NCBI GenBank assembly: GCA_964401385.1 | Contig: CAYNYF010000064.1 | Coordinates: 1 to 24,713 of the forward strand | DNA: 24,713 bases | Reading direction: 5' to 3' | Origin: an uncultured Planctomycetaceae bacterium | Lineage (GTDB): Bacteria > Planctomycetota > Phycisphaerae > SM23-33 | Part shown: in pieces, positions 3,292 through 20,232 of the stretch | Numbering within the stretch: position 1 is the first letter of the stretch | Layout of the letters: the number at the start of each line of letters is the position of its first letter | Program-made: the position numbers and the translations under genes | Notes under the pieces: model-generated | Databases searched by the model: none | What the model saw: the letters and a program-made list of their open reading frames with translations, nothing else | Told to the model about the DNA's origin: nothing

Positions 3292-3321
3292 CGAATGCGT
3301 GAGACGCTCCACTCAAACCGC

Positions 3322-4095: not shown

Positions 4096-4140
4096 CTGCC
4101 GGAGGGCTGGTACGCCCTGCCGCTGGAGAGACAGGATTGA
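4096..4140 (+). repeat. second copy of the 'PEGWYALP'-encoding C-terminal remnant ('...GRMDLPEGWYALPLERQD*')
   Basis: 'ctgccggagggctggtacgccctgccg' matches 'gcgccggagggctggtacgcgctgccc' at 3234-3260. Both are followed within 10 codons by a stop. Confidence 0.4.
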
Positions 4141-4395: not shown

Positions 4396-4825
4396 GGGAT
4401 AGCTCCCGCCTGCGAATGCACCAGATCGCCGCCGTTCGGACAGCACTCATGATGCCGAGGCCAAGACACAGAGCGGGAAGGAGCCAGTTGGCGCTGAACG
4501 AGATGGTCTTCTCGCCTTGTGCCGTGGCGATCGCCCAGGGAACGGCGCAGGTCAGCGTCCACAGGATCACGAGAGCGAGAGCGCCTGCGTTGTCGCCGCG
4601 AGCCCGTATCGATTCCTCGCGCTCGTCCGTGGTCGGGCCGTCTCCGTACCGCCTCCTTCTCCAGGTCAGTGCAAGGGCCCCGGCCGCGACAGGAAGGCAT
4701 CCGAGAGCAAGCAATAACACCCCCAGCAAAGCGCTGTGCTGGAGTTGGAAGACGCCCAGAGCCATGACGAAGACTCCGAGCCCGGTCAGTCCCAAGAGTC
4801 CGATCCACGATCCATCCTTTAGCAT
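4382..4825 (-). CDS. small integral membrane protein (about 4 TM helices), co-transcribed upstream of the XRE regulator
   Basis: The track ORF 4382..5236 was trimmed to ATG 4825 ('[60 protein letters not shown]...[18 protein letters not shown]...[27 protein letters not shown]'). An XRE plus small membrane protein pair is a recurrent architecture. Confidence 0.6.
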
Positions 4826-4890
4826 TGCTCGCCACACGGGATTTCCTTTCCGGCTGTAGTCGCAGTTGCACGTCAAGGTAACAGAACATG

Positions 4891-4918
4891 ATGTTATCAA
4901 AGAAGGACTAGATGTCAA
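4891..4918 (-). promoter_or_regulatory. sigma70-like promoter for the membrane-protein/XRE operon (-35 TTGACA, 16-nt spacer, -10 TAACAT) with an 11-bp palindrome 'AACATcATGTT' overlapping the -10
   Basis: Minus-strand reading 'ttgcTTGACAtctagtccttctttgaTAACATcatgtt' lies in an AT-rich (about 42% GC) 170-bp island. The palindrome is at 4885-4895 on plus-strand coordinates and is a candidate operator for the XRE protein. Confidence 0.35.
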
Positions 4919-5024
4919 GCAAATTTTACACAAACTCGGCGAATTCTCGTTGAGGACTTCCTCACACGGCATCCGACCCGGCCAGGCCTTCGTCGGGCTG
5001 TTCGGGCACGTCAGGCAGCTCGGG

Positions 5025-5277
5025 CACGGGCCCAGGGAGAGGATGAAGTCATGATCGAAATGCAGATGAAGGCGCTGTTTTTCGACTCGCCCCGCGTTCT
5101 GCGGGCGATGGACGCCGCCACGCGCCGAGAGATGTCCTGGGTCGGGGCGTTCATCCGCCAGCGGGCCAGGACTTCCACCCGCAAGCGCAAGGGCATCTTT
5201 CGTCCCGGCGGCCCGCCGCACTCCCGCGCGGGGCATCTGCGGCGGCTGAGGGGCACGGGCGGGCCTGGCGGCCGTGC
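5025..5277 (+). repeat. R2: full-length copy of the ~250-bp R repeat with SD+ATG and N-terminal coding-like sequence 'MIEMQMKALFFDSPRVLRAMDAATRREMSWVGAFIRQRARTSTRKRKG...'
   Basis: About 88-90% identical by eye to 7947-8207 (R3), with small indels that shift the downstream reading frame. 'gggagaggatgaagtcATG' with ATG at 5051. The track ORF 5051..5413 (120 aa) starts here. Confidence 0.7.
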
Positions 5278-5482: not shown

Positions 5483-6883
5483 CTATTCCGACATCAGGCC
5501 CTTGATCACGTTGTCGGGCCAGTCCTTGCTGATGCACTGGTGCTTGCCGTCGAGGCCGTACAGCACGACCTCCGGCCGCTTGGGCGAGCCGAGGGGTGAA
5601 CCCGGCGGCACCATCACGCATAGCTCCCGCGCCGAGCGCCAACTCGCCGGGGGTGCGGGCATGTATCTGTTCTCCGGGAGCCACCCCTTCTCGACAGGGC
5701 TCTGCGTCCGTCCGGTTTTCAACTCGACGATGCCGACCTCTCCTTTCTCTCCGGGCACACTGACCCACTGCGCGTCGGGGCTGAGGCGGAACATAAGCAC
5801 CAAGCTCGGCAGCGTCTTGTACGCCAAATCCGGCAGCAGCTTGGAGACGACGGCGGCGTTGCCGGGGTGGATGACGAACAAGGTAAAGTTTGTCGGCAAC
5901 GTGCCTGCCGTCGCCGGCAGCTCAACGCGCACGGAGCTGAATATGATCCGCCCGTCCGGAAGCCACCGTAGTCGGGCAAAGGGCGAAAAGAGAACGGCGG
6001 CGACTTCCTCGGTTTGGCCGGGCGGTCCGATAAGCTCACCGGCCTCCGATGCCACCCTACGCTTCACGATACTGCCCGTGTTGAGGTCCTTGCCTCGGCC
6101 GACGGCTGTGTAATACAGCAACGACCGACTGTCGGGCGACCAGTCGAACTGCCAACTGACCTCGGTCTCCAGAAGCTGCGAGCCCGTCTTGGCCTGCCCT
6201 TGTGAAAGCTGCCTCACGTGCAGCCGAGCGCCAGTGGACGATACGTCAGACCCCCCCTCCTTTGTGAGCGACTGGGTCGTGAAGGCCAGCAGCTTGCCAT
6301 CCGGGCTGGCGGAGACGTGGAGAATCCCTCCCGGGTACTCCAGGACCTCCTGGTCGGCCTTGGCCTGGCCGTTCTCGACGTGTGCCATGATGATCCGCGA
6401 GCCCTCGACCTTGGCACCCCCGAACTCCCGCCAGAGCTCGCCCAGCTTGGGCTTGAGCTCCTCGGCGTGCTTGGTCGCCAGGTACATCTTCATCATCCCC
6501 AGCGTGCTGGACGAGAGACCTTGAGTGCTGGCCATCCGGCCGAGGTCCTTTTCGGAAGAGCGAATGATCTCCGACCGGAAACGCTCGGCTAGCACGATGA
6601 CCTCCTGCTCCGTTTCAGGCGGCAGGGCCCGTTCCACCCGGTCCCATTTGGCCATGTCCGTGCTATCCACGGCCAGGAAACGCTTGGAGTCGCCAAACCA
6701 GGAAACGAAAGCGACACGTGATTCCTTCAGGCGGTTCAGCTTTCCTTTGGCGTCTGTGACATACAAGCCATCGGCCAGTACCAAAGCCTGCTGCCCGTCG
6801 GGCGACCAGCAGATTTTCTCCGGCAGGCAGCCGCCGCAGTTCAAGCCCAGTATTCCCAGTAATGCGAACAGATACGATTTCAT
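5483..6883 (-). CDS. secreted/lipoprotein-like beta-propeller protein (TolB/PD40-WD40-like repeats), 466 aa
   Basis: Signal peptide 'MKSYLFALLGILGLNCGGC'. Repeated 'SPDG' propeller motifs (WSPDGQQAL, SASPDGKLLAF, WSPDSRSLLYY, WLPDGRIIF, LSPDAQWV). 'gggagatagaa' SD before ATG 6883. The start overlaps the anti-sigma stop (ATGA). The 5' end is lower in GC. Confidence 0.8.
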   Translation of the reverse strand: MKSYLFALLGILGLNCGGCLPEKICWSPDGQQALVLADGLYVTDAKGKLNRLKESRVAFVSWFGDSKRFLAVDSTDMAKWDRVERALPPETEQEVIVLAERFRSEIIRSSEKDLGRMASTQGLSSSTLGMMKMYLATKHAEELKPKLGELWREFGGAKVEGSRIIMAHVENGQAKADQEVLEYPGGILHVSASPDGKLLAFTTQSLTKEGGSDVSSTGARLHVRQLSQGQAKTGSQLLETEVSWQFDWSPDSRSLLYYTAVGRGKDLNTGSIVKRRVASEAGELIGPPGQTEEVAAVLFSPFARLRWLPDGRIIFSSVRVELPATAGTLPTNFTLFVIHPGNAAVVSKLLPDLAYKTLPSLVLMFRLSPDAQWVSVPGEKGEVGIVELKTGRTQSPVEKGWLPENRYMPAPPASWRSARELCVMVPPGSPLGSPKRPEVVLYGLDGKHQCISKDWPDNVIKGLMSE

Positions 6884-7383
6884 TGTTCTATCTCCCGAAC
6901 CTGCATTTCAGAGGGCGAGTGCCAGTTGACAAGCGGCTTGCGCCGATCCTGAGTGGCCTTGGTTGTATCAATGAATGCCTGAAGGCTCCACAGCTCCGAC
7001 GTCCTCATGGCCGGCGTGGGCGCGGGCACGACGACGACAGACGGTTCCGGCGCGGGCAATTGCCGTTCGCGTGGAAACAGCCAGCGAGCAGACAGCCCCA
7101 CCAGCAGGCAGCCTGCCATGGCGATCGCCATGACAGCGGCCCGCCATCGTGATCGCTGACGCGGCCGTGCAGCCAGCGGCGGCAACTCCAGCCCCGCCGA
7201 CACGCTCCGCCTCTTCATCGCCTCGTGCGCCTGGGCAGCGGTCGTGAGGAGCTCCGACTGACGCGAGTTCCGTCCGGCATCCTCGGCCACAACGGCTGCT
7301 AGCAACGCCTCGACGTCTTCGGATAGCTGGCCTAGCGCCCGATCCAACATCAGTCGCTCAAGCAGGTGGGGCTCGACATTCAT
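6880..7383 (-). CDS. anti-sigma factor (single TM helix), 167 aa
   Basis: N-terminal 'MNVEPHLLERLMLDRALGQLSEDVEALLAAVVAED' is typical of an anti-sigma N-domain. TM helix 'WRAAVMAIAMAGCLLVGLSARWLF'. ATGA overlap with the upstream ECF sigma stop. Position is between the ECF sigma and a periplasmic protein. Confidence 0.7.
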   Translation of the reverse strand: MNVEPHLLERLMLDRALGQLSEDVEALLAAVVAEDAGRNSRQSELLTTAAQAHEAMKRRSVSAGLELPPLAARPRQRSRWRAAVMAIAMAGCLLVGLSARWLFPRERQLPAPEPSVVVVPAPTPAMRTSELWSLQAFIDTTKATQDRRKPLVNWHSPSEMQVREIEQ

Positions 7384-7859
7384 CTTTGATTCTCCTGTCC
7401 TCCCAACTGCTCCCGCAGTGTCCGGACGGCGTTGTGCAGGCGAGAGCGGACCGTCCCCAGCGGGATGCCCAAGACGAACGCGATTTCCTGGTACGATAGT
7501 TCGTGCTCGAGCCGCAGGTCCAGTGCTTCGCGCAACTCTGGCCCAAGCCGCCTAATGGCCCGAAGCATCATCTGAATTCGCTCATCCGGCTCCGAAGAAG
7601 CAGGAGTGGCCGGGAAGTCATCCTGGAGGGGAAGCGGGCGAGACCGTCGGTGCGACTTTGCCGCCAGGTGCCGCGCCACGGCATACAGCCACGCGCGCGG
7701 ACTCTGGAGGTGGCTCTGGCTGGCCTGCTCCACCAGGGCCCGAAATGTCTCCTGCACGATGTCCATCGCCCCATGCCGATCGCCCACCAGCCGGCGAACG
7801 TACGCTGCCAGTCGAGGTGCTTCCAATCTGTACAACGCCGCTATCTCAGTCGAGTCCAT
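7380..7859 (-). CDS. ECF (sigma-70 family group IV) RNA polymerase sigma factor
   Basis: Region 2 'DIVQETFRALVEQASQ...SPRAWLYAVARHLA' and region 4 'LRLEHELSYQEIAFVLGIPLGTVRSRLHNAVRTLREQL'. The start was trimmed to ATG 7859 (MDSTEIAALYRLEAPRLAAYVRRLVGD); 7895 is the alternative. Confidence 0.85.
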   Translation of the reverse strand: MDSTEIAALYRLEAPRLAAYVRRLVGDRHGAMDIVQETFRALVEQASQSHLQSPRAWLYAVARHLAAKSHRRSRPLPLQDDFPATPASSEPDERIQMMLRAIRRLGPELREALDLRLEHELSYQEIAFVLGIPLGTVRSRLHNAVRTLREQLGGQENQR

Positions 7860-7946
7860 CCTGGATCCCGGGGGTTTCCATAAGGATGTACCCATTCAGC
7901 CGGGAAAGTTCATCCTCCATCGGGATCTTTTTGAGTCGAGCCCGCG

Positions 7947-8207
7947 CGCGGGCTGCGGGAGGGGATGAAGTCATGATCGAAATGCAGATGAAGGCGCTGT
8001 TTTTCGACTCGGCCCGCGTTCTGGGGGCGATGGACGCCGCCACGCGCCCGGCGCTCAGGCAAGCCGGGGCGTTCATGCGCCAGCGGGCCAGGACCTCCAC
8101 CCGCAAGCGCAAGGGCGTCTCGCGGGCCCGCGAGGCGGCCCGCCGCACTCCCACGCGGGGCATCTGCGGCGGCTGAGGGGCACGGGGCGGCCCTGGCGGC
8201 CGTGGCC
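7947..8207 (+). repeat. R3: full-length copy of the R repeat; contains an apparently intact 68-aa ORF 7973..8179 ('MIEMQMKALFFDSARVLGAMDAATRPALRQAGAFMRQRARTSTRKRKGVSRAREAARRTPTRGICGG*') with SD 'GGGAGGGG'
   Basis: Direct repeat of 5025-5277 in the same orientation. Together with R2 it brackets the ECF sigma/anti-sigma/propeller module. Confidence 0.7.
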
Positions 8208-8329
8208 GGTTCTCAGGAGTGCTCCAATTCGCATGTAACCCGCTCGGCCGGACGGTCCACTCACCTTGCGCAGAAGCAGTGAGAAGAGGGCCGGCGATTG
8301 CCGGGCCCGGATGCGTGAAGGAGAAAGAC

Positions 8330-8620
8330 ATGAACGCCAGGAGACTGCGTGTGCCCAAGCCGGTGAAGTGGATTGTGACAGTGATTCTGGTCCTCGCCGC
8401 CGGGGCGCTGCTGGGCGGATGCCACAAACGCAAGGTCTTCGTCCTGCACGAACCCGGCCCGTATGTGGCCAGACACGGAAGGCGCCCCCGCGTCGTGCTG
8501 GTCGACCGCGGCAGGGACCGCCGACACAGGGAGGAGGCCCGCCATGAGCGTCGAGAACGCCCGGATAAGCGTCGTTCGGATCGCCGTCAGGACGATCGGC
8601 CCCGGCCGCGGCGACGCTGA
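8330..8620 (+). CDS. small lipoprotein (96 aa) with extremely Arg/Asp/Glu-rich C-terminal tail
   Basis: Strong SD 'GAAGGAGAAAGAC' before ATG 8330. Signal peptide plus lipobox 'WIVTVILVLAAGALLGGC'. Tail 'RGRDRRHREEARHERRERPDKRRSDRRQDDRPRPRRR'. The start was trimmed from the track ORF 8219..8620. Confidence 0.55.
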   Translation: MNARRLRVPKPVKWIVTVILVLAAGALLGGCHKRKVFVLHEPGPYVARHGRRPRVVLVDRGRDRRHREEARHERRERPDKRRSDRRQDDRPRPRRR

Positions 8621-9933: not shown

Positions 9934-10278
9934 GCCGCCCCGCCATTGCTCATGCCGGGCGAGGGTGTACGCCGCCCACCGCTCACGCTGTCGGAGGTAG
10001 GGCTGTACCGACGCCCTGTCAACAACCCGCCTTGCCCGGCGCCTCTGACCAGGCCTCCCCGGCATGTAAATAGGACTCCATAAGCTGCAAATTGTGCTTG
10101 CAAAGACGGACAGGACGCAATAGAATCCTTCCTCTGTGGGACCGTTCAAGTCTACGTTGCTGTGGTAGTGTCCCAGGTTTTGATGCAATAAGCGCCTCGT
10201 CACGAGCAGTTTCAGCCGAGCTGTAGACAGGCGACCTGGACAGTGTGGGGCGCCTCTGATCTGGCAAGGAGAACGAAC

Positions 10279-11358
10279 ATGACGAAGCGGATCGGGCCCG
10301 CAGTGATTGAATTGCGCTTCGGCACGGACAGGGCGCCGAGGCAGCGCGAACGCCGAGGCTTCACGCTGATCGAACTTCTGGTGGTCGTCTCCATCATCGC
10401 CCTGCTGGTTTCGATGCTGCTGCCGACGCTCGGCAAGGCCAGGGACATGGCCAAGAAGGCGGGGTGTGCGTCACAGATGGGGGTGTACGGCCGGCAGATC
10501 GCCCTCTACCTGACCGAGTACAACTCCTACCCCCACTACGGCCCGTACGGAATCGGCGTCCCCGGCTTCTACTACGAGAACCTGGCGTTTCCCAAGTTCT
10601 ACGGGATCATGGAGACCTACGGCGTTACGGGCACGCACCGCACGAACTGGGGCGTTTACACCTACATCTGGGAAGCCGACGAGGTATGGGACGGGGCGCT
10701 GTGCCCGGGGATGGACGCCCTGGAGGTCTGGCAGGTCGCCGACCAGGCGTTCGATGCCGGACGGGCGTCCTACGACGGCAAGCCGTCGTTCCATAAGGGG
10801 GCGGTCGGCTACCAGTGGAACCCGACGCTCCGGGCAAGACACCCCAAATTCTCACCAGGGCGATGGCCCACTTGCCTGGAAGACTGGCCGGACGCCGGCG
10901 ACCACGACTATACCATGTGGATCGACTGGGTGATCAACCTGCCCGTCGGCAGCTTCGGCACGCAGGCGGTCAACCAGGAGGAGGTCAACCAGCCCCAGAC
11001 AGTCGCGGAGGCCTGGGATTCCTGGGATGTCAATGCCGCGCCCAACGTCAACATCGCCGGGAGCTACGCGGTGGAGGGCGTGGTGCCCGGCTGGCACGTC
11101 GGGCCGCAGTCGCGGGGCACGAACGGCTGGGCCCTGCTCAACGCCGCGCGGCACCCGAACGGACCGAACGTATTGTACGCCGACCATCACGTCGCCTCCG
11201 ACGTGAACAAGGCGATCGACCCCGGTCAGTTGGGGCCCTGCCCGTCCGGCAGTTGGAACGGCATTAAGGCGGTCAGTTGGAGCGACTACCACGAGGATTT
11301 CGGGACGATGTGGCACATCTGCCCGCAGCGGAAGTTCAAGGTTCCTCCAGAAGATTAG
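10279..11358 (+). CDS. DUF1559-type protein with prepilin-type N-terminal cleavage/methylation domain (type IV pilin-like N-terminus)
   Basis: 'RRGFTLIELLVVVSIIALLVSMLLPTLGKARDMAKKAGCASQMG' is the hallmark class-III signal / DUF1559 N-terminus, massively expanded in Planctomycetota-Verrucomicrobiota. Perfect SD 'AAGGAGAACGAAC' before ATG 10279. Confidence 0.85.
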   Translation: MTKRIGPAVIELRFGTDRAPRQRERRGFTLIELLVVVSIIALLVSMLLPTLGKARDMAKKAGCASQMGVYGRQIALYLTEYNSYPHYGPYGIGVPGFYYENLAFPKFYGIMETYGVTGTHRTNWGVYTYIWEADEVWDGALCPGMDALEVWQVADQAFDAGRASYDGKPSFHKGAVGYQWNPTLRARHPKFSPGRWPTCLEDWPDAGDHDYTMWIDWVINLPVGSFGTQAVNQEEVNQPQTVAEAWDSWDVNAAPNVNIAGSYAVEGVVPGWHVGPQSRGTNGWALLNAARHPNGPNVLYADHHVASDVNKAIDPGQLGPCPSGSWNGIKAVSWSDYHEDFGTMWHICPQRKFKVPPED

Positions 11359-11367
11359 GCGGCCACC

Positions 11368-11802
11368 ATGCAAAGCACACCCTCGGTGATCCTGGCCTGC
11401 ATCCTGACCGGGCTGATCGGCCTGGCCGGATGCAAGGACGCGGCCGAGAAGATCAGCTCGGCCGACCACCTCCTCTCCCGGCAGCACAAGGCCTGCGCCG
11501 ACGCCCTCGAGACCCTGCGCTCAGACCAGCCCAACTATAACCTGGTCCGAGCGGCCGGCGGGCGCTTCCGCAGGACCCTGCGCCGGGTCGAGAAGGACTA
11601 CACCGGCTCGAACAAGCACGAGGTCATCGCCAAGCTGAACCTGCTGGCCGATAGGTTCGACGCCGAGGTTGCCCCGAAGCTGACCATGGCCAGCCCGGAG
11701 GTCCGGTTGCAGACCGGCGTGACCCCCGAGGAACTTCGGGCCGCGTTCGAAAGCCTTCAGGCCGATTTTGAGACGCTAAAAGACCTGACGTCCGGCGGCT
11801 AA
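11368..11802 (+). CDS. small lipoprotein (144 aa), hypothetical
   Basis: Signal peptide plus lipobox 'ILACILTGLIGLAGC'. The start is 10 nt after the preceding stop, suggesting co-transcription. Confidence 0.65.
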   Translation: MQSTPSVILACILTGLIGLAGCKDAAEKISSADHLLSRQHKACADALETLRSDQPNYNLVRAAGGRFRRTLRRVEKDYTGSNKHEVIAKLNLLADRFDAEVAPKLTMASPEVRLQTGVTPEELRAAFESLQADFETLKDLTSGG

Positions 11803-11904
11803 ATTCGTATAACTCGCCTTGTAGTATAGGCGTGCGCGAACAGGGCGAGGCTGTTTGGTCTGTCCGGCCTGCAAGGGCGCAGGTGCAGAGCAAAAGAATG
11901 CTGG

Positions 11905-11922
11905 ACAGTTTAGCTAAACTGT
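11905..11922. promoter_or_regulatory. 18-bp perfect palindrome 'ACAGTTTAGCTAAACTGT' in the AT-rich promoter region upstream of the first PEP-CTERM gene
   Basis: Read directly from the sequence. It sits in a 280-bp stretch at about 48% GC that also contains a 'TATATT' -10-like element at 11936-11941. Confidence 0.5.
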
Positions 11923-12080
11923 GGTATTAGATAGGTATATTGGGTAGTTTACCTGCGGGCGGCGGGGTTGCATGTGCATGTCCGTGGGATTCTTTGTAGA
12001 GACACAATTCATACGAGCGAGGATACAGACTCTCGCCTTCGTGTGGTGAGAGCGGGAAATTTGATCTGGGAGGTAAGCTT

Positions 12081-13253
12081 ATGCCAATAACAACGAAGAC
12101 CTTGTGGACTGGGTTGGCGGCCGTGGTTGCGCTGGCTTGGCTGGCCGCTCCGGCCTCAGCCTTGGACTTGGGTTACGGCAAGTACATACCCACCAAGGAC
12201 GAGCCTACGAACGGGCAATGCTGGGCCGAGTTCGTCAACATGGGCGCCAACGAGTACGCCTTCATCAAGGCCGGCGTTGCTACCTGGCAGGCGGACTTCG
12301 ACCGGGACGCCATCGCGGCCGTCCTGGCGGCCTGGCCTCAGCATGAGGTGAGGCTCTACATCACGACTGCCGATAGCGATGATCCCTCTCTGGACGAGCG
12401 ATTCATGCCCTACACGTGGCAGAGCCAGAGCGTCTGGGGCGCCGAAGGCGACGGTTACTGGGACTTGTCCGGACAGCTCACGTGGAACGACTACGGCGAT
12501 CCGCTGAACTACAACAGCCACGCCTTCAACTGGACCGCAGGCACTCAGGCCATCTGCCAGTGGGGCATTTGCAGCCATCTCGGGACCGGCGTGGTGGACA
12601 CGGCCAACAGCCAGCATTGGCTGGATGCGGCCGGCAACCCGATCGGTAATCCCTGCTCCGCGTTCGGCGGGCCGCCCGCCGGCAGCGACCCGACGGGGTG
12701 GTGCCAGAGCAAGATGGAGTGCTGCTGGGGGGCGTTCGACTCAGCGGCCGACAGCAAGCTGCTCAACTCCGAGCCGATCATCGGCCTCGGGGACATGGTG
12801 CAGGCGTGGGTGAAGCTCGACCAGGAGCTGGTGGAGGATATCACCGGCACCGGGCGGGCGAACGTCTTTGCCCTGGGCGTTGCCCTGGCCGACGAGAACA
12901 ACGACATCTGGACCAATTGGAACAACCTCTGGATGTGCACCAAGGAGAACGAGGGCAACGAGCCGTACATCCGGCTGATGTGGCCCGGCGACGCCAACTT
13001 CGACGGCTGCGCCAACGGCGCCGACTACACCCTCTGGGCTGACAACTATCAGCTAAACCCCGGCGGGCAGGGCTGGGAAGAGGCCGATTTCAACGGCGAT
13101 ATGAACACCGACGGCGGGGACTACACCCTCTGGGCTGACCACTACGTAGGCGGAACCGGCGGTCCCGGCTGCACGGGCACGGGGCAGATCCCCGAGCCGG
13201 TGACGCTGGGGTTGCTCAGCCTTGGGGCTGTGGCGCTGCTGCGTCGGAAGTAG
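12081..13253 (+). CDS. PEP-CTERM sorting-domain secreted protein with two dockerin-like Ca-binding repeats
   Basis: Strong SD 'GGGAGGTAAGCTT' before ATG. Signal peptide 'LAAVVALAWLAAPASA'. C-terminal 'IPEPVTLGLLSLGAVALLRRK'. Repeats 'GDANFDGCANGADYTLWADNY' and 'ADFNGDMNTDGGDYTLWADHY'. Confidence 0.85.
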   Translation: MPITTKTLWTGLAAVVALAWLAAPASALDLGYGKYIPTKDEPTNGQCWAEFVNMGANEYAFIKAGVATWQADFDRDAIAAVLAAWPQHEVRLYITTADSDDPSLDERFMPYTWQSQSVWGAEGDGYWDLSGQLTWNDYGDPLNYNSHAFNWTAGTQAICQWGICSHLGTGVVDTANSQHWLDAAGNPIGNPCSAFGGPPAGSDPTGWCQSKMECCWGAFDSAADSKLLNSEPIIGLGDMVQAWVKLDQELVEDITGTGRANVFALGVALADENNDIWTNWNNLWMCTKENEGNEPYIRLMWPGDANFDGCANGADYTLWADNYQLNPGGQGWEEADFNGDMNTDGGDYTLWADHYVGGTGGPGCTGTGQIPEPVTLGLLSLGAVALLRRK

Positions 13254-13575
13254 CATTCGAAATCGAGGACGAATGGCCCAAGCGGCCTGGCGCGGATCCT
13301 CATCTCGCCCGGTCGCCTGGGCCAAGAACGAGGCCGGGAGGGTTGACCGGGGAACCGGGCGGCGCCCGGACGCAGGGAGCAGAACGGATGCGTTGAGCTT
13401 CGCTTCCGGTGATCCGGACCGCCGGGTTCTTGCAGCCCGGCGTGGCCCTTACGGAGAGCAAATCAGAAAGGAGGTGTGTGGAAGAATGCCGGTGAGCGAT
13501 TGTCCATATTGTGAGGACACTGAGAGACGGAATCCCCGCTACAGTGGGGCATTCCAATGGAAGGAGGGAGTATCG

Positions 13576-14478
13576 ATGAAGACACTTTTGGTCATTCTAA
13601 CAGCGCTGGCTGTATGCGCCGTCCCGGTGGTGGGGGAGCCCTTCCTCTGCCAACGGGACAACGCCAACGACCAGGCCGGCGGCCCGCCGCCGCCGGGAGA
13701 GTGGCACAGCAACGAGGGTGCCAACAACGTTGCCCGCATCAAGGCCTCTGACCACCAGTGGTACGGCGACTGGGATATGGGTGCGATCCTGGAGTACATG
13801 GACTGCAATCCGTGCCCACAGGGCATGTACTACGAGGCCCGGCTGTACGTCGTCCCCGACGCGGGCGAGGGCGGTTGGGTGCCCGGGGCGATGAACCCGG
13901 TGCAGATCGCCGCGGTGTGGAGCGAGAACGACTGGGTCGAGGGTGACGCTGGTCGGACGTATTCGAACTACAACTGGACCAACCCGACCGAGAACTTCGC
14001 GGCCACGGAGGCGTACGCCGGGGACACCGAAGACCCCAACAACCCGGGGAATTCGGACCCCGTCCGTGCCGTCCCCTGGGTCCACCCGACCCGAGGCGTA
14101 TGCACGATGATGGGGACGTTCCTGGACTATAGCGACAAGAGCGGCACCCTTCCGGATCCGCTGACGCCGTGGCAGCCGTGGTTGGGAGTGTGCAACTCGG
14201 TCAGGAACTCCCAGGACTTGATGATCGACCCGGACCAGACGGGCGTGTACCACAGCGTGGTCCTGGACGCCGCGCTGTTCCAGGACATGCTGACCAACCC
14301 GAACAACCGCGGGTTGGCGCTGTATAACCTGCCGCCGGACAGCTTTGCCAACCGCAACATCCGGACGCGGGAATATGTCGACAGCGAGCCGTACCTGGAC
14401 GTCGTCTGTGTTCCCGAGCCGGCAACGTTGCTGCTGCTGGTCTCCGGCGGCCTGCTGATGATTCGCAGGAAGCGCTAG
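13576..14478 (+). CDS. PEP-CTERM sorting-domain secreted protein (300 aa)
   Basis: SD 'GGAAGGAGGGAG' before ATG 13576. Signal peptide 'MKTLLVILTALAVCAVPVVG'. C-terminal 'VPEPATLLLLVSGGLLMIRRKR'. The track ORF 13222..14478 was trimmed. Confidence 0.85.
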   Translation: MKTLLVILTALAVCAVPVVGEPFLCQRDNANDQAGGPPPPGEWHSNEGANNVARIKASDHQWYGDWDMGAILEYMDCNPCPQGMYYEARLYVVPDAGEGGWVPGAMNPVQIAAVWSENDWVEGDAGRTYSNYNWTNPTENFAATEAYAGDTEDPNNPGNSDPVRAVPWVHPTRGVCTMMGTFLDYSDKSGTLPDPLTPWQPWLGVCNSVRNSQDLMIDPDQTGVYHSVVLDAALFQDMLTNPNNRGLALYNLPPDSFANRNIRTREYVDSEPYLDVVCVPEPATLLLLVSGGLLMIRRKR

Positions 14479-14725: not shown

Positions 14726-15655
14726 CTACGGCCAGTCCACCCTGCGTTCGGTCAGGAAGCGGATGACATCGTCCCGGCCGGGAATGCCCGCCCGGCCGCC
14801 CATCTGCCTGCACTTCATGGCCGCCGCCGCGGAGGCGAACTGGAGGTTCTTCACGAACGGAAATCCCTCCACCAGCCCGTAGCAGAAGGCCCCGTGGAAG
14901 GTGTCGCCCGCGCCGGTGGTGTCCACCACCTTCACCGGGAACGCGGGCATCTCCGCCAGGTCCTCGCCGTCGAGATACACCAGTCCCCGCTCGCCCAGGG
15001 TGATGACGACGCGCTCCGGCCCCATCGCGCGGACGGCCGTGCAGGCGGCGAGGTAATCATCGCTGCCGGCCAATCGCCGGGCGCAGCCCTCGGAGATGAT
15101 GGCGAAGCCCACGTAGGCCAGCAGGGCCGCGGTCCGCTCGCCGACGCCGCCCAGGTCCGCGACGACCGGCACGCCGAGCCGCCGGGCCTGCCGGGCGGCC
15201 CGCAATGCGCTGGCCGGATACGTCCCGTCCACCAGCAGGCAGCCGGTGCCCTTCAGCGCCTCGGGCGAGCCGATCGGCTCCTTCGGCTCGGAGAAGCCCG
15301 CCCCGTAGGGGAAGTGCCGCTGCCCGGTGGGGCTGTCGACGCAGACCACGACCATGGGCCCCCGGCCGCCGGGCATCACGACGACATGGCGCGTGTCCAC
15401 CTTCTCGCGCCGCAGCCCGTCCAGGATCATCCGTCCCATCCAGTCGTCGCCGACGGCGGCCCACAGCTCCGCCCGCCCGCCGAGCCGCGCCACCGTCACC
15501 ATGGCCGTGCCCACCATGCCGCCGCCCTGCACCTGGAAGTCGAGGATCTTGTTGTCCACCAGCGGGGCCTGCACGTCCTGCCACAGGATGAGCTGGTCCA
15601 GGACGGCCAGCCCGACGCCGACGACCTTCTTCCCGCTGTCGGAGCCCGCGTTCAT
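14726..15655 (-). CDS. PfkB-family carbohydrate kinase (ribokinase/tagatose-6-phosphate kinase-like), 309 aa
   Basis: 'VDTTGAGDTFHGAFCYGL' is the PfkB signature 2 (DTxGAGD). N-terminal 'VVGVGLAVLDQL'. The track ORF was trimmed to ATG 15655, which overlaps the aldolase stop (ATGA). Confidence 0.85.
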   Translation of the reverse strand: MNAGSDSGKKVVGVGLAVLDQLILWQDVQAPLVDNKILDFQVQGGGMVGTAMVTVARLGGRAELWAAVGDDWMGRMILDGLRREKVDTRHVVVMPGGRGPMVVVCVDSPTGQRHFPYGAGFSEPKEPIGSPEALKGTGCLLVDGTYPASALRAARQARRLGVPVVADLGGVGERTAALLAYVGFAIISEGCARRLAGSDDYLAACTAVRAMGPERVVITLGERGLVYLDGEDLAEMPAFPVKVVDTTGAGDTFHGAFCYGLVEGFPFVKNLQFASAAAAMKCRQMGGRAGIPGRDDVIRFLTERRVDWP

Positions 15656-16500
15656 ATCAGCCCGCCTGCCCCCAGCTCGCCGAGGTAGCGGGTGACGGTG
15701 GCGGCGACCGCCTCTCTGCCGGCCTTCAGCGCCGCCGACCAGCCGCACCGCCCGCCGGCATCGGTAACGGCCGCGCACAGGGCGTCGCTGAAGTCCTTGT
15801 GGAGCTGCGTGGCGATGTTGAGCTTCCGCACGCCCAGTTCGGCCGATCTGCGAATGTCGGCCGCGGGCAGGCCCGTGCCCCCGTGAAGGGCCAGCGGCAC
15901 GCCCGCGCGCGAGGCGATCGCCTCGATCAGGTTGAACCGCAGCCGCGGCGGCTTCTTGTAGAACCCGTGCGCGTTCCCCACGGCCGGGGCGAGGATGTCC
16001 ACGTGCGTCTCCCGGACAAAGCGGGCGGCCTCGTCGGGGTCGGCCAGCTCCGCCGGCTCGCCGCCGGCCGACTGCTCCTGGCTGAAGCTGCCCAGCTCGC
16101 CCTCGATGGTCGCCCCGTGGGCGTGCGCGAGGGCGGCCATCTCGCGGGTTCTGCGGACGTTCTCGTCGAACTCGCACGCCGAGGCGTCGAACATCACGCT
16201 CTTGAAGCCGAGCTTGAGGGCGGTCTCGATCTCCCGTTCCTCCCGGCCGTGGTCGAGGTGGAGAATCACCGGCACCGACGACCGCGCCGCGAAGGACCGC
16301 GCCAGGTCCGCGCAGGCCTCCAGCCCGATGTAGCCGGCCCCCGGCGCCCACACCAGCAGCAGCGCCGGCGCCCGCGCCGCCTCACAGGCCGTCAGCACCC
16401 CCAGCAGGAAGTCGCTCTGCCCGCCGCCGATGTCGAAGCCGGGAAGGCAGAGCTTCCTCGCGTTCAGAAGGGGCATCACCTCGTTGAGGCTCACCAGCAT
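15652..16500 (-). CDS. class II ketose-bisphosphate aldolase (fructose/tagatose-1,6-bisphosphate aldolase, GatY/KbaY-like), 282 aa
   Basis: 'PVILHLDHG' and 'LALHGGTG' Zn-ligand motifs of class II aldolases. The length matches the GatY/KbaY subfamily. It forms an operon with the PfkB kinase. Confidence 0.85.
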   Translation of the reverse strand: MLVSLNEVMPLLNARKLCLPGFDIGGGQSDFLLGVLTACEAARAPALLLVWAPGAGYIGLEACADLARSFAARSSVPVILHLDHGREEREIETALKLGFKSVMFDASACEFDENVRRTREMAALAHAHGATIEGELGSFSQEQSAGGEPAELADPDEAARFVRETHVDILAPAVGNAHGFYKKPPRLRFNLIEAIASRAGVPLALHGGTGLPAADIRRSAELGVRKLNIATQLHKDFSDALCAAVTDAGGRCGWSAALKAGREAVAATVTRYLGELGAGGLI

Positions 16501-16881
16501 GCCTTCTCCTTATCCGGTCGGGCCTGGCTCCCGCGCCCTGGTGAAATGCCGGCCGCCGGGCGGTCCCGCCCGGGCCGGGCGATCTGGAGTATAAGCGGAC
16601 GCCGCCCCGCAGCACATGCTTTTCCGCGGCCGCGGGGCCTCTCTGACCTCCCGCCCGCGACCGCCGGCGTCTCCCGGATTCTACCCCCGCAACGCTTCGC
16701 CACAAGTTTGGATTCACCCATGACCTGCGCCGGTGGCGAGTGAGCTACGTGCGCCTGGGACACCCCATACGGAGCTTCCACGTGATTATCTGGCCATCAG
16801 ATGACGAACTTCGTTTCTTCGCCTGGTGGAAGGATGTAGCCGATGAGGCGAAGAAGAGAAAATGTGCTGAGAACTGAGCCC

Positions 16882-17331
16882 CTAGCGCAGCTTGAGCCGT
16901 CGCACGAGCTGAATCCCGTTCTTGTCGAGCACCCTTCGCTGTGGTGAGTTCGGCAGTATGTTTATTCCTCCGGCACTCACCCACACAAACCTGCCTCGCT
17001 GTACTTCGTTCAGAGGTTGGCCCGTCATCCAGCTCTCGAGCCACCCCTTCTTCCTGAGCACGAGCTGGATCTCGCTGACCTTCGCCCTGTGGAATTCAAC
17101 GAAAAACGCTTTGTCATTCTTGTTGCTTATGCGATAGCCGATTGCATAGTCCCATCGGTTGGCGTTCGGGTAGGTCGCTCGCAAGGCAGCGTCTATGTTG
17201 ACGCTGCCTGCGATTCGGCGCGGGTCACGTGCATTGATGCTGGACCTATGGGCCTTGCTCAGCGAGCGGAGCCCTACACGAAAATGTGTGGCAATCTCGA
17301 GTGTGCCTTGGACAGCGGTCTTGAACTTCAT
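16882..17331 (-). CDS. hypothetical 150-aa protein, second gene of the ATPase operon (candidate effector/partner)
   Basis: Trimmed to ATG 17331, preceded by 'GAGGGACACGA' (GAGGG SD). That ATG overlaps the ATPase stop (ATGA). No cysteines and no recognisable catalytic motif. Lower GC (about 54%). Confidence 0.55.
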   Translation of the reverse strand: MKFKTAVQGTLEIATHFRVGLRSLSKAHRSSINARDPRRIAGSVNIDAALRATYPNANRWDYAIGYRISNKNDKAFFVEFHRAKVSEIQLVLRKKGWLESWMTGQPLNEVQRGRFVWVSAGGINILPNSPQRRVLDKNGIQLVRRLKLR

Positions 17332-18524
17332 TCGTGTCCCTCGGGACTGCCAGCTGCGATCTCGCCAATCACCTGGCCCACTCGACCGCTGAACTCCGTC
17401 AAGCCACCCCATCCTGCCTCTGCGGGATTGTCTGCCCCCGGATCAAGCCCGGATATGTCCCGGGCCACATGGCCTCTAGAGCCCCGTAAGCGTTCAAAGT
17501 AATAGACGCGTTTTTCCTTCCGGATAGCCGCTCGGGCGATTTTCCTCATCTCAGGGCTGTGTCTGCTAAGACCGAACATGTCAATGACCTTGTCGGGCAG
17601 AGCGCCGTAGCCCTGAATGGTTCGCAGCCCCCAGACGACATCAAGGACGTGGGGAGAGTGCGTGGACAATACAACGCGGTATCCTCGCCACAGCAACTCG
17701 AGGATGACAAGCATTACGGCCGAAATTGCTGCGGGGTGGAGGCCCATCTCAGGTTCCTCAACGATCACCCATTCGGTATCACCTCGCCGAGCGGTCTTCG
17801 CCGAAGGACAGAGCCAGTAGAGACCAAGCAGCAGCGGAACGAACTCGCGCTGCCCCGCCGACCACACCATGAAAGGAAGCTTGTCGCCTTCGCCCTGCAA
17901 AACAAGACGCCGCTGAACGCCTCCCATCCGGTCAAGCTTCAAGGAGAATCCGTGGAAGACAGCGGCATCGAGGGCCTTGCGAAGCTCGGCCTTGAGCCTG
18001 CCTGCCTGCGGAAACACGCTTGCGGTCTTGCCTCCTCCTAGGCCGGCCTGCATTTGCATACGGAGCTTCTCACTGAAGCTTGGTACAACATATGGGTCTC
18101 CTGCGGCGAAATCGGTAAACGGCCTCGGCCACCCCATGCTCAGCGACAACACCCGCTGGGCGGGAATGTACAACATCTTCTCCATGCGCTTGTGACGTTT
18201 GGCTTTCGCGAAGTTCTTCAACCTAGTGGGAAGATCAACATGCTCTTCTTCCCAGACAAGGACGCTGGCGCCGCTTCCTGATTCCGTCCACACGCCCCGC
18301 ATGCCCTCGCCCAAGTACAGGTTTAGGAAGAGGTTCAAATTGCCCTCCCACTCATACCCGTACCTCTTCAGATCGTCGGTGATCTTTGGGCCGTCAACCA
18401 TCAGTTTCAGGAACTGAAGGAAGATGCTCTTCCCACTGGCCTGGGGGCCGACAAGCACGGTCAGGTCGCCGAACTCAACATTGGCGTCCTTGAGCGGTCC
18501 AACGTTCTGCAAGGCGAGCTTCAT
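17328..18524 (-). CDS. ABC/SMC-like AAA ATPase (AAA_21/AAA_15-type, OLD/AbiEii-like ATPase head without nuclease domain), 398 aa
   Basis: N-terminal 'LTVLVGPQASGKSIFLQFL' is a Walker A at residues about 22-34. Walker B/D-loop 'WVIVEEPEMGLHP'. H-loop 'VLSTHSP'. A roughly 200-aa insertion separates Walker A and B, as in SMC-like/AAA_21 ATPases. SD 'CGGAG' 9 nt before ATG 18524. Confidence 0.8.
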   Translation of the reverse strand: MKLALQNVGPLKDANVEFGDLTVLVGPQASGKSIFLQFLKLMVDGPKITDDLKRYGYEWEGNLNLFLNLYLGEGMRGVWTESGSGASVLVWEEEHVDLPTRLKNFAKAKRHKRMEKMLYIPAQRVLSLSMGWPRPFTDFAAGDPYVVPSFSEKLRMQMQAGLGGGKTASVFPQAGRLKAELRKALDAAVFHGFSLKLDRMGGVQRRLVLQGEGDKLPFMVWSAGQREFVPLLLGLYWLCPSAKTARRGDTEWVIVEEPEMGLHPAAISAVMLVILELLWRGYRVVLSTHSPHVLDVVWGLRTIQGYGALPDKVIDMFGLSRHSPEMRKIARAAIRKEKRVYYFERLRGSRGHVARDISGLDPGADNPAEAGWGGLTEFSGRVGQVIGEIAAGSPEGHE

Positions 18525-18576
18525 GGTCTGTACTCCGATGTGCTCCCTGACACTGTGGGCCGTCGCGCCCGAGTCT

Positions 18577-18605
18577 GCTAAGCCTAATACTACCCGAGAG
18601 GAGCT
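18577..18605 (-). promoter_or_regulatory. possible sigma70-like promoter of the ATPase operon (-35 TTGCCT, 17-nt spacer, -10 TAGTAT)
   Basis: Minus-strand reading 'TTGCCTcaatagctcctctcgggTAGTAT', about 50 nt upstream of ATG 18524. Confidence 0.3.
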
Positions 18606-18744
18606 ATTGAGGCAACCAACGGCAAGAACACACGGTGCGCGAATTCACCACGATGCCTTCTCCTATTGCGGCGGCAGCGCGCCGTTCGAAGATGCCGTCA
18701 ATACCGCCCGGAGCAAAGGTGTCGATAGCAGCCACCATATCCCT

Positions 18745-18776
18745 CCCCGGCAACGGTCCGTATGTCGTTGCCGGGG
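18745..18776. other. perfect 11-bp stem / 10-nt loop hairpin (CCCCGGCAACG-gtccgtatgt-CGTTGCCGGGG) immediately 3' of thi4
   Basis: Read directly from the sequence. There is no U-tract on either strand, so it is not a canonical intrinsic terminator. Confidence 0.4.
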
Positions 18777-18781
18777 CCAGA

Positions 18782-19555
18782 TTACTGCCCGGCCTTGGTC
18801 AGTTCGTCGGCGATGAGTTCGGCGGCGCGGCGGCCGGAGAGGAGCATGCCGCCGAAGATCGGTCCCATTCTCGGCCCGCCCAGGACGGTGCAGACGCTCA
18901 TGCCGCAGACCCACAGGCCGGGGTAGACCTGGCAGACGTTCTCGACGACGAAGGCCTCGCCGGCGGCGGCGTCCATGGGCCCCTCGCCGCCACCTTTGGC
19001 CTGCACGATTCCCCGCTTCCGGAGGGCGTCGAACACGGCCGCGTCGTGCCCGGTGGCGTCGACGACGGCCCCGGCCGAAAACGTGATGGGGTCGATCGGC
19101 AGGGCTTCCCCGATCATGCTGCGGTTGACCACCGCGCCGGCGACCCTGCCCTGACGCACGCAGACGTCCTCCACCGTCAGCAGGTTCAGCAGCACCGCGC
19201 CGGCCTGCAAAGCCTTCCAGCACAGCCCGGCGGCCAGCTCGACGCTGTCGGCCGTGTGCAGCCCGCCGCCGCAGGGACGGTGCCTCACGCCGACCTCGTC
19301 CAGCAGGGGCAGGGCGCCCTCCTGGAAGACGGCCTCGCTCATGGCCATGCCGCCGCCCCAGATTCCCCCGCCGGGGGAGAGGCGCTTTTCCAGCACGGTC
19401 ACCTTCACGCCCTTTTGGGCGAGGTCGAACGCGGCCGTCAGCCCCGAGGGGCCGGCCCCGCAGATGAGCACGTCGCTGACGATCCTGTCGGCGAGCTTCT
19501 CGTGATAGGTGCTGATGATCGCCTTGGAGATTTCTGTTTCCTGCAAGCCGGGCAT
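18782..19555 (-). CDS. thi4: thiazole synthase Thi4 family (thiamine thiazole moiety biosynthesis; FAD/NAD-binding)
   Basis: 'DVLICGAGPSGLTAAFDLAQKGVKVTVLEKRLSPGGGIWGGG' is a Rossmann GxGxxG followed by the Thi4-characteristic 'SPGGG(A/I)W' segment. Trimmed to ATG 19555 with 'GGAGTGAGGATAGAA' SD. Confidence 0.85.
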   Translation of the reverse strand: MPGLQETEISKAIISTYHEKLADRIVSDVLICGAGPSGLTAAFDLAQKGVKVTVLEKRLSPGGGIWGGGMAMSEAVFQEGALPLLDEVGVRHRPCGGGLHTADSVELAAGLCWKALQAGAVLLNLLTVEDVCVRQGRVAGAVVNRSMIGEALPIDPITFSAGAVVDATGHDAAVFDALRKRGIVQAKGGGEGPMDAAAGEAFVVENVCQVYPGLWVCGMSVCTVLGGPRMGPIFGGMLLSGRRAAELIADELTKAGQ

Positions 19556-19686
19556 TTCTATCCTCACTCCTGCGGCGTCCCTGCCTGATCGCGCCGCCCA
19601 TCGGCGCAGAGCAAAGATACTACTATCTTGGCGGCAATGCTCAAGTGTCTGCTTGCCTGACCTATCCGGAGTTTGCCGAACCGGGC

Positions 19687-20232
19687 TGGGAGCTGGCAAC
19701 TGCGCGGGTGGCGAGAGCCATGGAATGAGACATCGCCGAGACAATTCCGGTGCGTGCGAGCACGCACCCTACGCCCCGCCCCAGCCCCATCGGGGCGTCT
19801 TGACCGGATGGGCAGGCAAGGCGCCCCTACGGGGCTCCGGCCGGGCTAACCCGGCCACCTCCCAGGGCTCGCGCCCTGGGCTAAGAAAGGCGCCCCTGCC
19901 GGGGCTGCCCGTGGAACCGGCCACACGTCAGTCTGCTTGCGGGTTGCACCGGGCGGGGCGGGAGCCGGCAACTGCGCGGGTGGCGAGAGCCATGGAATGA
20001 GACATCGCCGAGACAATTCCGGTGCGTGCGAGCACGCACCCTACGCCCGGCCCCAGCCCCATCGGGGCGTCTTGACCGGATGGGCAGCCAAGGCGCCCCT
20101 ACGGGGCTCCAGGGCGGCGAAGCCCTCCACCTCCCCGGGCTGGCGCCCTGGGCTAAGAAAGGCGCCCCTGCGGGAGCTACCCATGGAACTGGCCACACGT
20201 CAGTCTGCTTGCGGCTTGCACCGGGCGGGCCC
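19687..20232. repeat. tandem direct duplication, period ~273 bp, 2.0 copies (plus a short partial third start at about 19644), extremely GC-hairpin-rich
   Basis: Unit 1 'gggagctggcaactgcgcgggtggcgagagccatggaatgagacatcgccgagacaattccggtgcgtgcgagcacgcaccctacgcc...' recurs from 19961. Each unit contains the 8-bp-stem hairpin 'GGTGCGTG-cgag-CACGCACC' and several GCCCC/GGGGC stems. No ORF is conserved between units. Confidence 0.8.

Follow-up and report, generated by a model that had tools for sequence, protein, structure and literature searches.

What is encoded by the gene pair lying between thi4 and a sugar operon in this stretch of DNA, and is it, as an initial annotation proposed, an unclassified defence-like module? 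The stretch analysed, referred to here as the window, is 24,713 nucleotides long and comes from a probable Phycisphaerae (Planctomycetota) genome. The location given in the annotation holds, since the flanking genes are Thi4 (18782-19744) on one side and a class II FBP aldolase and PfkB kinase (14726-16500) on the other. The main features of the locus are as follows.

17328-18524, minus strand: gene A, an ABC-type ATPase with a SMC/Rad50/PtuA-like head, 398 aa, PADLOC PDC-M56A.
16882-17331, minus strand: gene B, the partner, 149 aa, PADLOC PDC-M56B, with a predicted PD-(D/E)xK (restriction-endonuclease-like) fold.
17328-17331, minus strand: ATGA stop/start overlap of 4 nt from gene A to gene B, read from the sequence.
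18525-18781, minus strand: leader of 257 nt from the thi4 stop to the ATPase start, read from the sequence.
16700-18750, no strand: region of reduced GC (about 0.49-0.65 per 100 nt in a fine-scale composition profile), marking the probably acquired segment.

Both open reading frames are on the minus strand and they overlap, as had been claimed: the ATG of gene B (17331-17329) shares bases with the TGA of gene A (17330-17328). The GC content of positions 16882-18605 is about 58% (58.1-58.2%) compared with 66.5% in the rest of the window, so that the reported drop in GC is real, although smaller than the figure of 54% had implied. The immediate flanks of the pair are at 69-71% and the host background at 66-70%, and GC3 is 0.69-0.71 in the pair against 0.85-0.96 in the adjoining genes. 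In the leader, GGAG (18533-18536) lies 8 nt ahead of the ATG of the ATPase gene. The sigma70-like promoter postulated for the pair was not borne out, as a consensus scan of 16400-18900 gave 0 sites where 0.7 were expected; the best upstream candidate found by eye (TTGCCT-17 nt-TAGTAT) matches at 8/12 positions. A weak terminator-like hairpin in the leader (18652-18631) is no more than shuffled sequences yield.

The pair proved to be already classified. The ATPase matches PDC-M56A over its full length (E 3.3e-144, 478.6 bits; its residues 2-390 cover positions 3-378 of the 382 in the profile), the runner-up PADLOC family being at 3.6e-18. The partner also matches over its full length, to PDC-M56B (E 1.5e-42, 143 bits; its residues 2-149 cover positions 6-150 of the 151 in the profile), and this is its only PADLOC match. 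Gene order and orientation are those of PDC-M56, with A upstream of B, adjoining and on the same strand. By these profile matches, the gene pair is a further copy of the catalogued defence candidate PDC-M56, with identical architecture. PDC-M56 corresponds to cassette CAS_00181 (FAM_00005>>FAM_02395) and is one of 145 'guilt-by-embedding' candidates, drawn from genes that sit inside defence systems already known, a set called untested by its authors (Payne et al. 2024, bioRxiv 10.1101/2024.01.29.577857). As the pair is already listed there, it is not a new effector class. PDC-M56 is not mentioned in the main text of the literature searched, and thus no published description of the partner fold was found. 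The window copy differs from the catalogue entry in being solitary between thi4 and the sugar operon rather than embedded.

All five motifs expected of an ABC ATPase are present in gene A, and their conservation was assessed in an alignment of 34 homologues (A3).

18426-18449, minus strand: Walker A (P-loop) GPQASGKS, residues 26-33, read from the sequence; G26, P27, Q28, A29, G31 and K32 invariant.
18153-18164, minus strand: Q-loop PAQR, residues 121-124; P121, A122, Q123 and R124 invariant.
17850-17861, minus strand: ABC signature SAGQ, residues 222-225; W221, S222, A223, G224, Q225 and R226 invariant.
17748-17771 (residues 252-259), minus strand: Walker B VIVEEPEMGLHP, residues 253-264 (codons WVIVEEPE 252-259, then GLHP), read from the sequence; E256, E257, E259, L262, H263 and P264 invariant.
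17652-17666, minus strand: H-loop STHSP, residues 287-291, read from the sequence; H289 and S290 invariant.

Walker A, Walker B and the H-loop had been correctly picked out by the initial annotation, and the Q-loop and signature can now be added to them. The 'roughly 200-aa insertion' by which it had the two Walker motifs separated is instead a normal ABC layout, made up of the Q-loop, the signature motif and a compact insert. Pfam identified AAA_21 (67.9 bits, cut-off 27), AAA_15 and AAA_23 only, in agreement with the claim that the ATPase carries neither a fused Toprim nor a fused HNH domain, and its model has an ABC head fold with no extra nuclease domain. That Pfam describes AAA_21 as 'AbiEii toxin' was given no weight in favour of a type IV toxin-antitoxin system.

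By sequence, the sole PDB match of the ATPase is the class 2 OLD protein 6p74 (E 1e-4), with the Walker B region of which its own Walker B stretch aligns. By structure, the closest relative is PtuA, the similarity being in fold only, and the nearest group is that of sensor ATPases of proven defence systems. A housekeeping pair for DNA repair or chromosome maintenance, composed of a RecF/RecN/SbcC-like ATPase and a nuclease, is a very improbable explanation of the locus: scores with repair-family HMMs all fall well short of their cut-offs (RecN, for instance, reaches 13 bits where 408 are required) and the ATPase has no coiled-coil insert. The distribution of the pair, described below, bears on the same question.

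Less could be read from the sequence of the partner. It is free of cysteine and belongs to no family in the Pfam, NCBIfam or PHROG profiles, as had been stated, its length being 149 rather than the 150 aa first given. Relaxing the Pfam threshold to E 5 for 150 family members yielded only noise, with two weak AHJR-like matches as the sole hint of a nuclease, and profile searches of the PDB gave nothing meaningful. The label 'RelE', attached by JGI to one homologue (P0014), was rejected, since it has no profile match behind it and the fold lends it no support.

The model of the partner is confident (pLDDT 95.2) and almost all of its best structural neighbours are PD-(D/E)xK nucleases, many of them from defence systems (Card1, Can2, Cap4, HamA, Hna and Shedu). 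On the strength of this model, the partner can be assigned a restriction-endonuclease-like alpha/beta core of the PD-(D/E)xK fold. Its putative active site is encoded as follows.

17050-17205, minus strand: candidate active-site codons of gene B, namely S43 (17203-17205), D47 (17191-17193), D61 (17149-17151), E79 (17095-17097), H81 (17089-17091) and K94 (17050-17052).

Across 176 diverse family members (median identity 37%), S43, W60, D61, E79, H81 and K94 are 100% invariant and position 47 is D or E in 99%. In the model, D61 lies just ahead of strand 62-67, strand 73-84 contains both E79 and H81, and K94 belongs to helix 85-102, from which we infer that D61, E79/H81 and K94 occupy the positions of the PD...(D/E)xK motif. 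Where (D/E)xK has its canonical lysine the partner has His81, and the invariant Lys94 is in the next helix. An hhalign comparison placed FVEFH of the partner on FVEIK of a YraN-like protein, at a probability below 1%, which is not significant.

With histidine in place of the canonical lysine, catalysis may be altered or lost altogether. The partner might then be a non-enzyme with a degenerate restriction-endonuclease fold, serving as a sensor of nucleic acids or nucleotides or as an adaptor, while the response would come from the ATPase or from an unlinked host factor. Inactive restriction endonuclease domains paired with NTPases have been proposed as immune sensors (PMC12839542), and the fold similarity of the partner to active nucleases is only moderate. 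Nevertheless, such a role is unlikely, since 100% invariance of D61, E79, H81 and K94 in sequences as divergent as these is typical of a catalytic site, whereas the described inactive domains lack conserved motif residues (PMC12839542). Furthermore, no other effector gene is conserved beside the pair.

How widely the two genes travel together was determined from a pattern-based scan of one genome per species (185,579 species), which found 58 loci of the partner family. In 53 of them the ATPase gene directly precedes the partner gene, both being on one strand, and paired loci occur in Bacteroidota, Planctomycetota, Cyanobacteria, Verrucomicrobiota, Proteobacteria, Firmicutes, Acidobacteria and Chloroflexi. 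In all loci measured (29/29) the gap between A and B is -11 to +19 nt. The 4-nt overlap of the window recurs in 14 of 29 related loci, and also in L062, L063 and L069, and one protein (P0083) is an in-frame fusion of ATPase and partner. The flanks of the cassette vary between loci and its GC content is below that of the flanks in 43 of 47. No third gene is conserved among the 138 nearest neighbours, and the leading PADLOC families there (AriA-, HEC-01A-, mad2- and AbiLi-like models) account for only 3-5 each, which counts against a role in defence. A family found in so few loci of that scan, with variable flanks and deviating GC, is not what a repair or chromosome-maintenance pair would be expected to show.

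The surroundings of the window copy were compared with those in metagenome relatives, in which aldolase-PfkB synteny is kept (77-94% identity) and the upstream neighbours differ. Close relatives carry this operon too, but the upstream stretch that was covered (396 nt in L070, 2.6 kb in L072 and 5 kb in L074) lacks the cassette, which also argues against a housekeeping function. In L070 the upstream neighbour is an aminotransferase-like ORF (read from the sequence); in L072 it is a divergent gene of 546 aa. No empty site joining thi4 to the aldolase was recovered among the metagenome relatives, and an exact-protein look-up of the aldolase gave no match. On either side of the pair there is an imperfect direct repeat of 27 nt; it is unlikely to be a target-site duplication because native homology with the relatives extends beyond it. 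Overall, the two-gene cassette was probably acquired horizontally by the host of the window.

What such a cassette does can be approached from the systems that it resembles. In Septu, the ABC ATPase PtuA is paired with the HNH protein PtuB (as also in the PtuAB effectors of retrons Ec78, Ec83 and Eco7). However, identity to the window ATPase is 17%, the PtuA model NF041760 of NCBIfam scores it at 24.6 bits where the cut-off is 500, and the cysteine-free partner, with its predicted PD-(D/E)xK fold, has no HNH match. In PARIS, the ABC ATPase AriA acts with AriB (DUF4435/Toprim); AriA matches of the window ATPase are partial (about 90-105 residues), and the partner has neither Toprim nor DUF4435 in Pfam and no PADLOC match to AriB. 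OLD and Gabija GajA share with the window ATPase the AAA_21/AAA_15 type and a Walker B of the form hhhhEEPExxLHP. In these proteins, though, Toprim is fused to the ATPase, while here the putative effector is a separate protein with a different fold.

HEC-02 is built on the same principle. This Hma-embedded candidate, one of those put to the test in Payne et al. 2024 (bioRxiv 10.1101/2024.01.29.577857), consists of an ABC ATPase and a NERD protein (a PD-(D/E)xK nuclease). As in PDC-M56, an embedded ABC ATPase has a separate partner of the PD-(D/E)xK superfamily. The HEC-02A HMM nevertheless makes only a weak partial match to the window ATPase (7e-9 over about 40 residues), and NERD is absent from the partner and from 150 family members (Pfam, E up to 5). 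As the predicted fold of the partner belongs to a superfamily already paired with defence ABC ATPases, the suggestion of a new partner or effector class is not upheld on this ground either.

By analogy with Septu and PARIS, the cassette is fairly likely to be a horizontally acquired PDC-M56 anti-phage candidate in which the ATPase gates a small PD-(D/E)xK nuclease. Gene A would supply a compact ABC ATPase with the SMC/Rad50/PtuA head and all catalytic motifs intact. Gene B, translationally coupled to it, would supply a minimal putative nuclease of 149 aa with an unusual D61...E79-x-H81...K94 site. An oligomer of the ATPase may bind the nuclease and hold it inactive, and may sense a cue of infection; a phage protein, the ends of foreign DNA or a shift in ATP are examples of what this cue might be. 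The ATPase would then free or activate the nuclease, and cutting of nucleic acid would stop phage replication, possibly at the expense of the cell. That the cassette defends the cell and that its partner is an active nuclease are inferred, and complex formation between the two proteins, the trigger and the substrate are argued from such analogies only. There is perhaps an even chance that the cassette is a working anti-phage system made up of a PtuA-like ATPase and a 149-aa PD-(D/E)xK effector with a D-ExH site and a relocated lysine, acting on DNA or also on RNA (compare Card1 and Can2).

ABC-ATPase-plus-effector cassettes are among the largest and least understood bacterial immune families, of which PDC-M56 is a rare candidate member. 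To its catalogue entry are added the predicted fold of the partner, the candidate active site (D61/E79/H81/K94), PtuA as nearest structural relative of the ATPase, an independent BREX-embedded case, evidence of repeated transfer across phyla and a copy in a cultured organism (Opitutaceae TAV5). With these data, mutational and biochemical tests become straightforward, and if the PDC-M56 design is true, the window copy and the plasmid copy in culturable TAV5 are ready test cases. For annotation, a specific candidate-defence label can replace 'hypothetical protein', although this does not amount to a new kind of system.

The genomic settings of the cassette bear on whether it acts against phage or for its own persistence. 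It could be a selfish module, addictive in the manner of toxin-antitoxin systems or directed against plasmids or competing elements, in which a nuclease toxin checked by the ATPase persists because its loss is harmful or because it excludes rival elements, with no real protection from phage. Tight coupling of two genes, one of them small, would suit such a module, as would the patchy, transfer-like distribution with deviating GC and the presence of a copy on a mobilizable plasmid of Opitutaceae TAV5. Many copies are outside defence islands: the cassette is solitary among housekeeping genes in the window, and likewise in L062 and L063, a setting that also speaks against the anti-phage explanation. 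In L067, a decayed partner gene lies beside an intact ATPase gene, which is also in keeping with addiction. This explanation is still rather improbable. One copy sits between BREX core genes, the ATPase is nearest to sensor ATPases of proven defence systems and, at 398 aa with every hydrolysis motif kept, it is unlike the typical small, labile antitoxins. In addition, the explanation is only partly distinct, as abortive infection and toxin-antitoxin action overlap mechanistically.

Protection against phage is favoured, and the proposal of a mobile cassette of the anti-phage type, with an ATPase and a small partner, has gained from the 53/58 co-occurrence, the uniformly tight gaps and the BREX-embedded copy. 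The outcomes that the initial annotation had named as counting against it were not what was found: the partner has no housekeeping homologue, the two genes are found together in many genomes and defence ATPases are the group with which the ATPase clusters. In the BREX-embedded pair, the ATPase is 75% identical to that of the window, and the two genes are flanked by BrxC and PglX (E 0 for each) within a type 1 BREX system, beside a HEC-01 module. The order in L068 and L069 is BrxB-BrxC-Fic-HEC-01A/B-...-PDC-M56A/B-PglX-...-PglZ-BrxL.

Embedding in BREX is also the same criterion as that by which PDC-M56 was defined as a candidate.

The module belongs to an already catalogued candidate system, PDC-M56, of which it is a further member. 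In the PADLOC comparison proposed by the initial annotation, which had called the module unclassified, the ATPase gave a full-length match to profile PDC-M56A (E 3.3e-144) and the partner a full-length match to PDC-M56B (E 1.5e-42). Other PADLOC-DB defence ATPase models align only to the Walker A or Walker B/H-loop ends, with the AriA, HEC-01A, NsnB, Old, GajA and PD-T4-4_A models at E 1e-18 or worse. The locus is a PDC-M56 member on every criterion examined. The supplement of Payne et al. 2024 (bioRxiv 10.1101/2024.01.29.577857) lists PDC-M56 as cassette CAS_00181 (FAM_00005>>FAM_02395); the 145 untested PDC (phage defence candidate) entries of that study, derived from genes embedded within known defence systems, were added to PADLOC. 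In the literature searched, no text mention of PDC-M56 was found. The partner has no family in NCBIfam or PHROGs, and the ATPase only sub-threshold ATPase matches there.

The two genes and the ATPase motifs are arranged as follows.

17328-18524, minus strand: ATPase ORF, 398 aa
8 nt before the ATPase ATG: GGAG
16882-17331, minus strand: partner ORF, 149 aa
Upstream flank, same strand as the module: Thi4
Downstream flank, same strand as the module: class II aldolase and PfkB kinase
ATPase residues 26-33: Walker A, GPQASGKS
ATPase residues 121-124: Q-loop, PAQR
ATPase residues 222-225: ABC signature, SAGQ
ATPase residues 253-264: Walker B, VIVEEPE then GLHP
ATPase residues 287-291: H-loop, STHSP

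The partner ATG (17331-17329) overlaps the ATPase TGA (17330-17328), giving the ATGA overlap read initially, at 17328-17331. The siting between thi4 and a sugar operon was also borne out, and the partner is cysteine-free as described, at 149 rather than 150 aa. Aligned with 34 homologs (53-79% identity), all five ATPase motifs, including the Walker A, Walker B and H-loop picked out initially, show no variation. The motifs predicted to serve ATP binding, hydrolysis and dimerisation are intact. Pfam matches were confined to AAA_21, AAA_15 and AAA_23, in agreement with the earlier statement that no nuclease domain is fused to the ATPase. The sole PDB match by sequence was the class 2 OLD nuclease 6p74 (E 1e-4). 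In structural comparison the Septu and PARIS ATPases are the nearest relatives, and transporter nucleotide-binding domains rank lower still.

The partner carries a conserved site with a putative role in metal binding and catalysis. Among 176 family members (median identity 37% to the window protein), S43, W60, D61, E79, H81 and K94 are 100% conserved and position 47 is D/E in 99%. In the predicted model D61 directly precedes strand 62-67, E79 and H81 lie within strand 73-84, and K94 is in the helix that follows. From this secondary structure we infer a PD...(D/E)xK layout, with His probably at the lysine position and Lys supplied from the next helix. The nearest structural neighbours are Card1 and Can2, type III CRISPR ancillary nucleases that are reported to cleave RNA as well as DNA. 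The JGI label 'mRNA-degrading endonuclease RelE' on one homolog (P0014) found no backing in profile searches or the predicted fold. The partner might instead be a non-catalytic sensor, but this is unlikely given that its polar residues S43, D61, E79, H81 and K94 are strictly conserved; such conservation favours an active enzyme over a degenerate sensor domain.

Co-occurrence of the two genes, raised initially as a check, was found in most loci. Searching 5.8 billion protein clusters by word index, a method that misses distant relatives, gave 33 partner relatives, and a profile search of 1.84 billion proteins gave 1189 representatives; nearly all of the best 150 of these stand alone, at about 150 aa. 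Scanning one genome per species yielded 58 partner loci, from groups that include Bacteroidota, Planctomycetota, Cyanobacteria, Verrucomicrobiota, Proteobacteria, Firmicutes, Acidobacteria and Chloroflexi. Directly upstream on the same strand, 53 of them have an ATPase homolog (26-55% identity), and in three of the remaining five the partner is at a contig edge. For the loci that allowed both gene ends to be placed, the gap was -11 to +19 nt (29/29 loci), with a 4-nt overlap in 14. No third gene was common among the 138 nearest neighbours in 54 loci. Most of these neighbours come from unrelated housekeeping families, and a few are integrases, HTH proteins or further AAA_21 ATPases; the leading PADLOC families (AriA-, HEC-01A-, mad2- and AbiLi-like) each account for only 3 to 5. 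The cassette is therefore a self-sufficient two-gene unit.

Two proteins join the pair in one reading frame. P0083 (366 aa) fuses the C-terminal half of the ATPase in-frame with the partner, running from the ATPase C-terminus straight into the partner start MTFQKAV, and P0066 (389 aa) similarly combines ATPase sequence and partner; both may be genuine fusions or artefacts of sequencing or gene calling. Locus L067, from a 659-kb contig, has at 10001-11330 an intact homolog of the ATPase (P0219, 55% identity) with only a 58-aa ORF at the expected partner position. This copy looks decayed, and about 7 kb from it there is an AbiEii-like gene.

On two long metagenomic contigs (L068 and L069) a homologous pair (P0184, 75% ATPase identity) sits within a type 1 BREX locus, in the order BrxB, BrxC (E 0), Fic, HEC-01A/B, PDC-M56A/B, PglX (E 0), a Schlafen/AlbA_2 protein, PglZ (E 1.5e-273) and BrxL. 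This locus independently reproduces the embedding by which PDC-M56 was defined. The defence-like reading first proposed is reasonable. In positions 1-21200 of both contigs the BrxC-BrxL passengers are Fic, HEC-01A/B, a DUF433/DUF5615 pair and the PDC-M56 pair; L069 also carries a Schlafen/AlbA_2 and HATPase_c_4 protein. The window copy and other close relatives are surrounded by housekeeping genes; that the pair itself serves housekeeping repair is very improbable.

The low GC first noted is real, although 54% was too low: GC is 58.2% in 16882-18605, 66.5% in the remaining window and ~69-71% in the immediate flanks. The two genes have a GC3 of 0.69-0.71, versus 0.85-0.96 in neighbouring genes, and a fine-scale profile places the depressed tract at ~16700 to 18750. 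Across loci, module GC was below the flanks in 43/47 (mean difference 6 points). In the cultured Opitutaceae bacterium TAV5 a copy (49% ATPase identity) is carried on a mobilizable 99.8-kb plasmid, and is usable for experiments. The window PfkB is closest to Phycisphaerae MAG proteins, being 72% identical to that of Phycisphaerae bacterium SM23_33, and this suggests a Phycisphaerae-like host from sediment. For the cassette, the closest named relatives come from Candidatus Latescibacter. Metagenomic relatives with an aldolase-PfkB operon 77-94% identical have different upstream neighbours, and in them the upstream DNA covered does not contain the cassette. Together these observations fit horizontal acquisition. 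The insertion borders are approximate, as no clean empty site was recovered. Cassette copies were not found in the phage collection. A mainly selfish cassette, with a toxin-antitoxin or anti-plasmid role, is an improbable reading of the pair.

The pair is mobile and tightly coupled, comprises an ATPase and a nuclease-fold protein, and is also found inside BREX. By analogy with Septu and PARIS, whose ATPases are the nearest structural relatives, the ATPase probably gates its nuclease partner. An ATPase oligomer would keep the nuclease in check, sense an infection cue and then free or activate the nuclease, which would cut nucleic acid. PDC-M56 resembles Septu, PARIS, OLD, Gabija and HEC-02 in outline of working, but is none of these. 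The PtuA HMM scores far below cut-off on the window ATPase and the partner is not the HNH nuclease of Septu; the Toprim domain of PARIS, OLD and Gabija is absent from the pair; and the partner lacks the NERD match that HEC-02 would require. In HEC-02 a separate PD-(D/E)xK nuclease already accompanies an ABC ATPase (Payne et al. 2024), so the effector class is not new, contrary to what had been suggested. What remains of value is an orphan predicted-nuclease family with a D-ExH-K site, and copies open to testing. The initial observation was largely correct; the GC value, the length of the partner and the promoter claim needed correction. A consensus scan of 16400-18900 found no sigma70-type site, leaving that claim unsupported, and terminator-like hairpins there were no more numerous than in shuffled sequence.

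Several minor features accompany the cassette. A 45-aa ORF (…HVIIWPSDDELRFFAWWKDVADEAKKRKCAEN) at 16740-16877 (plus strand) converges on the partner stop within the low-GC tract; it has no Pfam match, its relatives among 89 fetched loci are window-identical contigs only, and it may be a gene remnant brought with the cassette. An imperfect 27-nt direct repeat (22/27 matches; roughly 0.03 pairs expected by chance in 2.5 kb) brackets the cassette at 16491-16517, where it forms the aldolase RBS and start codon, and at 18645-18671, 120 nt ahead of the ATPase start. A target-site duplication is improbable, since homology with relatives that are cassette-free in the DNA covered extends beyond the first copy. 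An independent assembly (L059, an ENA contig of 1075 nt) matches the window at 99.7% identity from 17425 to 16549 and carries 198 nt of unrelated sequence beyond the latter position, being either a second genomic context of the same cassette or a chimeric contig. In the locus from the TAV5 plasmid (L090, CP007054.1) the pair occupies locus positions 6816-8498; its 165-aa partner ORF (locus 8001-8498) is absent from the PLSDB gene table and the ATPase (OPIT5_00420) is labelled hypothetical. Further low-GC stretches (0.55-0.59) of the window lie at 3251-4000, 6501-7000 and 11751-12250. ORFs at 3295-4140 (plus) and 4382-5236 (minus) are without Pfam matches, the latter adjoining rather than lying within the first stretch. 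Upstream of the sugar operon, 10243-14478 (plus) encodes a prepilin-type N-methyl protein and two PEP-CTERM proteins.
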